Positions 54,115 through 56,752 of a DNA stretch of 60,252 bases are shown piece after piece. Position 1 is the first letter of the stretch. Each line of letters starts with the position of its first letter. Position numbers and translations under genes: made by a program. This DNA comes from a virus (Duplodnaviria; Heunggongvirae; Uroviricota; Caudoviricetes). The notes under the pieces are model-generated. The model was given only the letters and a program-made list of their open reading frames with translations. It ran no database searches and was not told where the DNA came from. The stretch is from the IMG/VR virus record IMGVR_UViG_2562617057_000007; one strand, given 5' to 3'.

Positions 54115-54412
54115 TTTAATTTATCGCGAGAAAAACTATGTCTGTAGTGATATCAGGTGCGCTGACTGATGGCGCAGGTATCCCCATGTCCGGATACCAT
54201 ATTATTCTGAAATCCCGGGTAAACACCCCGGAAGTGGTGATGCACACTGTTGCTGATGTGATGACAGGAAACGATGGTGAATACTGTTTCCATGCGCGGA
54301 CTGGAAAATATGGTGTGTATCTGAAACAGGACTGGCGCAACGAGTACTGTGTTGGCGACATTGCTGTATATGAGGACTCAAAGCCCGGCACGCTGAATGA
54401 CTGGATTTGCCC

Positions 54413-55318
54413 CTATATTTCCAGACATCTGTTATCACTTAACCCATTACAAGCCCGCTGCCGCAGATATTCCCGTGGCGAGCGATAACCCAGCGCACTA
54501 TGCGGATGCCATTCGTTATAATGCTCGAACGCCTCTGCAAGGTTCTTTGCTGCCGTTAACCCGTCTGGTTTGGGCATGATACTGATGTAGTCACGCTTTA
54601 TCGTTTTCACGAAGCTCTCTGCTATTCCGTTACTCTCCGGACTCCGCACCGCCGTGTTCTTCGGTTCAAGTCCCAACATCCGGGCGAACTGGCGTGTTTC
54701 ATTAGCCCGGTAGCATGAACCATTATCCGTCAGCCACTCCACTGGAGACGACGGAAGAGCGTTGCCGAAGCGGCGTTCCACCGCTCCCAGCATGACGTCC
54801 TGTACTGTTTCACTGTTGAAGCCGCCGGTAGTCACCGCCCAGTGCAGTGCCTCACGATCACAGCAGTCCAGCGCGAACGTGACACGCAGTCTCTCTCCGT
54901 TATCACAGCAGAACTCGAACCCGTCAGAGCACCATCGCTGATTGCTTTCTTTCACGGCCACTCTGCCTGTATGTGCCCGTTTCGATGGCGGTACAGCAGG
55001 TTTTCGCTCAAGCAACAGCGCATTCTGGCGCATGATCCGGTAAACACGTTTGGCATTGATCGCAGGCATACCATCAAGTTCTGCCTGTCTGCGAAGCAGC
55101 GCCCATACCCGACGATAACCATACGTGGGCAGCTCTCCGATAACATGGTGTATACGGAGAAGCACATCCGTATCATCAGTGTGACGACTGCGGCGGCCAT
55201 CCATCCAGTCATCGGTTCGTCTGAGAATGACGTGCAACTGCGCACGCGACACCCGGAGACAACGGCTGACTAAGCTTACTCCCCATCCCCGGGCAATAAG
55301 GGCGCGTGCGCTATCCAC
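54413..55318 (-). CDS. insD: IS2 InsD (OrfB transposase domain)
   Basis: 301 aa, overlaps insC in -1 frame as expected for IS3-family frameshift fusion. Confidence 0.9.
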
Positions 55319-55641
55319 TTTTTTGCCCGTCCATATTCAACGGCTTCTTTGAGGAGTTCATTTTCCATCGTTTTCTTGCCGAGCAGGCGCTGGAGTTCTT
55401 TAATCTGCTTCATGGCGGCAGCAAGTTCAGAGGCAGGAACAACCTGTTCTCCGGCGGCCACAGCAGTAAGACTTCCTTCCTGGTATTGCTTACGCCAGAG
55501 AAATAACTGGCTGGCTGCTACACCATGTTGCCGGGCAACGAGGGAGACCGTCATCCCCGGTTCAAAGCTCTGCTGAACAATTGCGATCTTTTCCTGTGTG
55601 GTACGCCGTCTGCGTTTCTCCGGCCCTAAGACATCAATCAT
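55276..55641 (-). CDS. insC: IS2 InsC (OrfA)
   Basis: 121 aa starting [18 protein letters not shown]. Confidence 0.9.
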
Positions 55642-56752
55642 CTGTACTCCAATGACTAGTCTAAAAACTAGTATTAAGACTATCACTTATTTAAGTGATA
55701 CTGGTTGTCTGGAGATTCAGGGGGCCAGTCTAATGACTTTCTGATTGCTCCTGATGAGGGCGACCTGAAACCGGATGTCGTCAAACGCTTTGAGGAAATG
55801 GTGGCGCAGGCGCAGCAGAGCGCCGGGGCCGCAGCCGGAAACGCACAGCAGACGGCGCAGGATGTGGCGGCAGCCGCAGGTTATGCCCGCGCAGCAGAAC
55901 AGGCCAAAAATGACATTGATGCTGCGCTGACCGGCACTCTGAAAACGGCTAACCATCTGTCTGAAATCGCAGCAGCAGGCGAAAAGGCACAACAGAAGTC
56001 CCGGGATAGTCTGGGGCTGAAAAGTGCAGCCACGATGGAAGCACAGAGCGACATTTACGACCGGACAAAAGGCCGTCTGGCGATACCCGGCGCATTCGGC
56101 TTTGGGCGTGCTTTTCTGTCTGAAGATGTTATCCGTTTTGACACTAAGAGTGATTTCCTGGCCTGGGTAAGGAATGCGCTGCCAGGTGAATATTCCGTTG
56201 CTGGCCCCTACGACATCATCATACCCGACACACGGTTTGAAGGGGTGCTCAGCATCCGGTGGACTGATGCACGCCCTGAGACAACAGAACCGCGGTACAG
56301 AGCCAAATCCCTTACTTTTTACGGCATTAACGGCCCCATTTATCACACCCGCTACTGCTACTGGCCCATATCCAGACTGACTGGCTGGGTGAAAATAAAT
56401 ATAACCACAGAAGATATTATTTACAGAATCGTGGCGAGCTCTGTCTGCAACAGATGGGGAGACCCTGACATTGGCGGGCTGATTATTGCTGCGTACCAGG
56501 GAGAAGCTGACGGTGATAAAGTCATCAGACTTGTCAGGGGGCAGTCATACAGAGGCTCACGACTGGGACCGGTGGGGATTTCAGTGCCCAGTACTCCCAC
56601 CGGAACGTATATAGCATCCCCACAATTTTTCATTACGGGATGTTCAGAGCATTCATTACCGGGGTCATATTGCGCCCTGTCCGGGGTGCCGGATGCACAT
56701 GTCTCTGGCGCAATGCCCGGGCTTTTTATTCGCACATCGTGAGGAATGCACC

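Follow-up and report, generated by a model that had tools for sequence, protein, structure and literature searches.

Organization of the interrupted tail-fibre locus

The window analysed here is the entire 60,252-nt stretch of the IMG/VR record IMGVR_UViG_2562617057_000007 (Caudoviricetes), and a prophage spans almost all of it. We examined a complete copy of IS2, an insertion sequence (IS) of the IS3 family, which lies in the minus orientation inside a plus-strand tail-fibre gene of this prophage and is bordered on both sides by the pentanucleotide ATGAC (Table 1). The first-pass annotation, made from the letters of the window alone, had placed the element and its flanking repeats here, and both proved exact to the base. 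The arrangement is almost certainly the product of a single IS2 transposition after codon 88 of a 422-codon tail-fibre gene, which duplicated 5 bp of the target and cost the prophage this fibre.

Table 1. Coordinates of the interrupted fibre gene, its IS2 element and other features of the window (ORF, open reading frame; R-M, restriction-modification)
Feature	Coordinates	Strand	Evidence or content
IS2 (IS3 family), complete, 1331 bp	54402..55732	minus	100% identical to annotated IS2 copies over the full length
Target-site duplication ATGAC, left copy	54397..54401	.	single ATGAC in the uninterrupted L001 allele
Target-site duplication ATGAC, right copy	55733..55737	.	sequence
Fibre gene 5′ part, codons 1–88, nearly the whole Stf-type N-terminal collar/anchor domain	54138..54401	plus	PF08400; lambda Stf alignment
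Fibre gene 3′ part, codons 89–422 and stop: linker, Ala-rich helical shaft, C-terminal beta-rich tip	55738..56742	plus	phrog_2636
Extension of the fibre ORF into IS2 at its right end, with a stop after 28 IS-derived codons	54402..54488	plus	ORF list
IS2 orfB (InsD, DDE/rve transposase domain), 301 codons	54413..55318	minus	Pfam rve, rve_3, HTH_21
IS2 orfA (InsC), 121 codons	55276..55641	minus	Pfam HTH_Tnp_1; L003 gene calls mapped onto the window
DUF4376 gene, overlaps the fibre 3′ end by 50 nt	56693..57316	plus	Pfam PF14301, E = 2.2e-16; phrog_1141
Other fibre gene, intact, 410 amino acids	52334–53566	plus	ORF, Pfam, phrog
Caudo_TAP assembly chaperone (Tfa) of the 410-amino acid fibre	53569–54114	plus	Pfam, phrog
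Nested island, 22.8 kb, between the phiTE_015-like gene and the holin gene	9066–31913		two tyrosine integrases, type I R-M, IS66-family copies

Removal of IS2 together with one ATGAC, which the annotation had put forward as its own check, joins the two gene parts of Table 1 into 1269 nt, comprising 422 codons and a stop with no internal stop codon. The rebuilt frame aligns over its full length to intact tail-fibre proteins, and the break falls at residue 88/89. The expected product of roughly 423 amino acids was close in length, 423 being the number of codons with the stop included rather than the number of residues. When the right-hand junction was placed at each offset from 0 to 7 nt past the end of IS2 (n = 8), the frame was open only at the in-frame offsets of 2 and 5 nt.

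In the interrupted state, the upstream ORF runs past TLND, where the first-pass annotation had stopped it, for another 28 codons to a stop at 54488, giving a fusion ORF of 116 amino acids (54138..54488), and an identical ORF has been called in five NCBI assemblies. The 3′ part of the gene lacks its own start codon, and the ORF listed for it, a 345-codon frame, opens at a TTG within IS2 (55705). Correct annotation would enter the ORFs 54138..54488 and 55705..56742 together as a single pseudogene disrupted by IS2, rather than as two ‘tail fibre proteins’.

Uninterrupted alleles and spread of the insertion

A match between two 5-bp flanks has a chance probability of ∼1/1024, and the decisive evidence comes instead from an allele of the gene that lacks IS2. 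The L001 allele, from Escherichia coli VL7S7, has CTGAATGACTTTCTG at this site, where ATGAC occurs once, and is collinear on both sides. The rebuilt gene has 99.6% nucleotide identity to this allele, with two amino acid differences. The gene is uninterrupted in ten complete E. coli genomes, where it shows 96–99.6% identity and goes under the label ‘prophage tail fiber N-terminal domain-containing protein’. The two flanks are contiguous in the uninterrupted alleles L001 and L009, and the proposal that IS2 splits one gene is thus borne out.

The same site, orientation and duplication were found in L003, L004 and L005 (NCBI assemblies with E. coli-labelled proteins), in L008 (the ipaHb prophage of VL7S7) and in L012 (E. 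coli O121 201805972). Two draft assemblies, L006 and L007, have the left junction in common with the window. In all, at least seven assemblies besides the window carry the insertion. Where both junctions are present (L003, L004, L005 and L008), the rebuilt genes are only 0–5 nt apart, and the rebuilt protein differs from the intact alleles by 0–2 residues. RefSeq already marks both halves as ‘incomplete’ pseudogene pieces around IS2 in relatives. An exact-match scan of the GTDB species representatives did not find the left junction; the known carriers are not species representatives.

The identical 5-bp repeats on both flanks and the recurrence of the same junctions in independent complete and draft assemblies also bear on whether the two halves could come from different fibre genes, brought together by recombination between IS2 copies or by misassembly. 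This origin gains some plausibility from the abundance of IS2, which was found in 4854 of 5426 complete E. coli genomes at up to 41 places per genome, and from the presence of paralogous prophages with similar fibre genes in one genome (ipaHa and ipaHb in VL7S7). Nonetheless, given the repeats and the recurrent junctions, we regard it as so improbable that it can practically be set aside. IS2-mediated rearrangement or chimerism was rejected on the empty-site alleles L001 and L009.

Because the same junctions occur in several assemblies and empty-site alleles exist, the structure reflects one inherited transposition and not an artefact or a rearrangement. From these comparisons, the insertion appears to go back to a single event in an ancestor common to a group of enteroinvasive (ipaH-positive) E. 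coli and to have been inherited since. Its site and its duplication make it a clean, datable marker that places the strain with a small set of enteroinvasive E. coli positive for ipaHb.

The surroundings of the insertion are less uniform. In L005 (GCA_900450175.1, 9600–13250) the DUF4376 gene is followed downstream by an ABC-3/ZnuA-type metal-transporter cluster with no ipaHb there; either the right arm would seem to be rearranged or the element to lie at another locus. Within the window, the segment 53194–54402, which holds the Tfa gene and the collar-coding 5′ part, is 96.4% identical to the VL40 prophage and 95.2% identical to L001, with flanks at 99.6–99.9%. This pattern suggests a patch introduced by recombination between paralogous prophages.

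The IS2 element

The window holds a single copy of IS2, which runs with TGGATTTGCCCC from 54402 and GGCCAGTCTA up to 55732. Full-length copies that are 100% identical to it are annotated in complete E. coli genomes as ‘IS3-like element IS2 family transposase’. The overlap of orfA and orfB contains the A6G motif for a programmed −1 frameshift at 55318–55324 (IS2 coordinate 409), and ‘programmed frameshift’ is the remark that RefSeq attaches to the same-site IS2 copy in relatives. An ungapped comparison of the two IS2 ends gave partial complementarity only, and the ends were assigned to IS2 by identity. Target duplications of 5 bp are typical of IS2 (ISfinder), and another IS2 copy, in L009, has CAAAA on either side. 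The imperfect terminal repeats of IS2 measure 41 bp on the right (IRR) and 42 bp on the left (IRL), and its catalytic centres are spaced 5 bp apart (PMC3299598).

Set against the same-site copies of L003, L004, L005, L008 and L012, the window IS2 has one private base change, at 54759, which produces the substitution D187A in orfB. With this change, the window copy nonetheless matches exactly IS2 copies at other positions in E. coli O121 201805972. The change may stem from gene conversion between IS copies or may have arisen recurrently.

Identity of the interrupted fibre

The rebuilt protein's N-terminal region is an anchor domain of the side tail fibre (Stf) type. Residues 1–131 match profile positions 1–131 of 134 in PF08400 (E = 1.4e-69; 232.7 bits against a gathering cut-off of 26.6), and residues 1–121 of lambda Stf align without gaps at 43% identity. 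The alignment to intact Stf proteins that had been suggested as a check runs across the junction, where PGTLND followed by FL is conserved. A profile match to the PDB entries 9e7m/9mgh (E = 2e-29) covers the N-terminal collar domain. In Ur-lambda StfN, the collar comprises residues 1–91 and a flexible linker residues 92–101 (PMC12617516); since the break is at 88/89, IS2 sits at the collar/linker boundary.

Past about residue 130 there is no likeness to lambda Stf, and the protein continues into a helical shaft rich in Ala and then a C-terminal domain rich in beta structure. The AlphaFold2 (AF2) model of the 3′ part has a helix at 12–91 and a beta domain at 127–334 whose pLDDT is mostly 63–90 apart from one low-confidence loop. 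This part matches phrog_2636, ‘tail fiber protein’, with E = 1.8e-203. Over its full length the protein is homologous to phiP27 L56 (45% identity, E = 5e-119) and to phrog_2636, and over 1000 relatives labelled ‘prophage tail fiber N-terminal domain-containing’ exist, mostly in Shigella and E. coli. When the rebuilt gene was compared with phage genomes by megablast, only the first ∼370 nt were matched (phiP27, Rac-SA53 and vB_Apl-pPE4), and the same shaft and tip were not found at the DNA level in any phage of that collection.

The fibre gene is paired with the DUF4376 gene in all relatives as well as in phiP27 (L56/L57), the L57-like gene showing 79.5% nucleotide identity. The DUF4376 protein is probably a partner or chaperone of the fibre. 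The earlier description of the gene as Stf-like is thus apt for the N-terminal anchor domain of ∼120–130 residues, which matches lambda Stf, but not for the shaft and tip, which are unrelated, or for the partner, since DUF4376 is not a lambda-type Tfa.

Genes of the late module specify a tail sheath (phrog_205; E217 gp31-like) with a sheath initiator and, for the baseplate, baseplate J (E217 gp44-like) together with a DUF2612 wedge protein, and the presence of these sheath and baseplate genes identifies a contractile-tailed phage. A primary fibre and its Tfa (52334..54114) lie directly upstream of the interrupted gene. Because this separate pair is present, we take the interrupted gene to encode a second, accessory fibre. 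The name ‘side tail fibre’ given in the first-pass annotation therefore holds as a homology label but does not establish a position on a contractile tail that has its own primary fibre and Tfa. The N-terminal ∼190 residues also give a profile match to the gp40 collar spike of XM1 (7kjk; E = 2.4e-14). In XM1, a myophage, this domain is the anchor of the ‘collar spike’ of the neck, a trimeric fibre with an N-domain anchor of ∼100 residues (PMC10457771). The sheath and baseplate of the window are closer to those of E217/Pa193 than to those of XM1.

Predicted consequences for the fibre

The gene structure suggests the following course. IS2 would have entered the gene with its own transposase genes in antisense orientation, duplicating ATGAC. 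In the intact protein, the StfN-type collar would fix the fibre trimer to the tail and be followed by the linker, the helical shaft and the beta-rich tip, in what is probably an accessory role. Once interrupted, the gene would leave as its only in-frame product a 116-amino acid peptide of collar plus junk, with the part encoding shaft and tip cut off from the promoter-proximal start. Transcripts into the 3′ part and the DUF4376 gene would have to cross 1.3 kb of antisense IS2, which would be expected to exert polarity on DUF4376, and no complete fibre would be made. A search of 53500–57600 on both strands found no sigma-70-like promoter sites.

The break lies almost exactly at the Ur-lambda collar/linker boundary, so that the 116-amino acid ORF holds a nearly complete folding unit, and the allele has been kept in several lineages. 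Both facts would fit an insertion that is useful to its carrier, either because the collar-only protein caps docking sites or because transcription from IS2 drives the 3′ fragment and DUF4376. The second possibility is at odds with the promoter search, and the native IS2 promoter points inward. That promoter is also weak and is located at the inner end of IRL (PMC3299598). That the allele has been retained is accounted for by the vertical inheritance of a lesion that is neutral in a prophage without Q and replication functions, and the other IS insertions in neighbouring tail genes of sister lineages form a pattern of random decay. We therefore consider a useful product or regulatory effect very unlikely. 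We attach just as little probability to the more specific idea that the 116-amino acid collar cap blocks or decoys docking on its own or related tails and, separately, to the idea that the StfN-type fibre is a neck fibre as in XM1.

State of the prophage and order of the lesions

Compared with the orthologous VL40 prophage, the window is short of ∼3.2 kb, comprising most of a DUF5906 replication gene and the stretch with the Q antiterminator. What remains of DUF5906 is a stump of 77 amino acids at 8301–8534, and the phiTE_015-like gene begins at residue 18 (8491–8507). The late genes are in a different condition. Besides the sheath and the fibres, all 28 of the VL40 late-gene proteins compared, from holin to DUF4376, have full-length, stop-free matches in the window (32042–53566 and 56693–57316). 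The sheath (43036–44520) and the 410-amino acid fibre are open ORFs in the window; both are IS-interrupted in VL40, which thus provides no reference for them.

The lesions of VL40 (IS600 in the sheath, IS2 in the 410-amino acid fibre gene and ISEc11) are all absent from the window. Those of O121 201805972 are IS1, IS66, IS421 and IS600 in the sheath together with a baseplate deletion. A deletion of baseplate J and wedge genes is seen in VL7S7, O121 201805972, L006 and L007, and not in the window. In the structural module of the window, no lesion other than the IS2 insertion was found.

With the Q late-gene activator and most of the replication gene gone, and with a primary fibre and Tfa upstream of what is an accessory fibre, the gene might have been non-functional or unexpressed before IS2 arrived, and the insertion would then have changed nothing. 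However, the rebuilt ORF is open and 0–2 residues from intact alleles, and the other late genes compared are all still open. In addition, L012 carries the insertion with an intact replication gene and with Q present and annotated as non-pseudo, IS1 lying directly beside it. An already dead gene is therefore unlikely. Since the insertion is carried by a relative that has Q (L012), it predates at least the early-region deletion of the window. It is common to genomes whose other lesions differ, which suggests that it came early.

A single transposition that inactivated the fibre gene remains the preferred explanation. No observation speaks against the insertion as such, and three points qualify the wider reading. 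The loss of expression is something we infer, and the TTG at 55705 may allow low-level translation of an N-terminally truncated fragment. The late operon may be silent anyway without Q, in which case the insertion would be phenotypically irrelevant today. Lastly, the lesions can be put in order only in part. As late transcription would have to proceed without Q, the insertion probably has no present-day phenotype.

The insertion had also been offered as one more sign of a defective element. The prophage is indeed defective, in its replication gene, in Q and through the nested island, but its structural decay was overstated, as these defects lie in the early region. It is crippled independently of IS2 and is kept mainly as a carrier of ipaHb. 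The overall pattern looks like one of ipaHb cargo being retained while phage functions decay neutrally. Public annotation of enteroinvasive E. coli genomes already contains the IS element, the gene family, this manner of inactivation and even the very allele, and the event is an ordinary one, of little importance beyond correct annotation. It illustrates the typical fate of an ipaH prophage, in which the cargo is kept and phage functions are lost piecemeal to IS elements; the otherwise fully open structural module of the window copy is a modest point of interest.

At the right end of the window, ipaHb is intact and convergent with the fibre module (57496–59322, minus strand), encoding 608 amino acids with LRR and NEL E3 ligase domains. 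Next comes the first part of a pinE-type DNA invertase gene (59791–60252), which is a pseudogene with an internal stop in relatives; no obvious invertible fibre segment is left. In relatives, ipaHb and the pinE pseudogene adjoin yfhH-tadA.

The nested island carries the integrases at 9222–12139, hsdR at 24739–28026, hsdS at 28756–29940, hsdM at 29930–31453 and an M48 peptidase gene. No att-like direct repeats longer than 7 bp were found at its ends. The island is also present in E. coli G3/10 (L010), outside any prophage, and relative to G3/10 it is interrupted by an IS cluster at 15006–23694. This cluster contains IS66-family segments that are 100% identical (18640–20613 to 21364–23337, and 15783–16513 to 20641–21371) and an IS21/Mu-transposase-like ORF pair at 16613–18582.

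Comparison with known systems

The window copy resembles reference IS2 in its length, its orfA/orfB arrangement with A6G, its 5-bp duplication and the inactivation of a gene. Nothing of substance differs, the one private missense change (orfB D187A) being relative to the same-site copies.

With lambda Stf, the window fibre has the homologous N-terminal collar/anchor domain in common. The distal regions differ, being gp37-like with a Tfa (Caudo_TAP) in lambda and an unrelated shaft and tip with DUF4376 here. A true side tail fibre of the lambda type is attached where tube and tip of the tail meet. Laboratory lambda PaPa lost Stf through a frameshift, with the rest of the tail genes intact (PMC12617516), and is therefore a parallel case of an accessory fibre lost by a single lesion. 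The lesion in lambda PaPa is a frameshift in a phage with a non-contractile tail, whereas in the window it is an IS insertion in a phage with a contractile tail.

In phiP27 the gene order is the same as in the window, namely fibre, Tfa, StfN-type fibre and L57/DUF4376-like gene. L56 is intact and has 490 amino acids with a longer shaft, in contrast to the interrupted 422-amino acid protein of the window. XM1 likewise has a contractile tail, and its gp40 gives the N-terminal profile match, but gp40 has 839 amino acids and is attached to the neck.

A parallel in terms of fate is the decay of ipaH prophages in Shigella and enteroinvasive E. coli, which have the same locus (next to yfhH-tadA) and the same ipaHb cargo as the window. 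In the relatives, further insertions of IS1, IS600, IS66, IS421, ISEc11 and IS2 have hit sheath, fibre and baseplate genes. Among these ipaH prophages the window has the least damaged structural module, and the large early-region deletion and the nested R-M island are its additional features.
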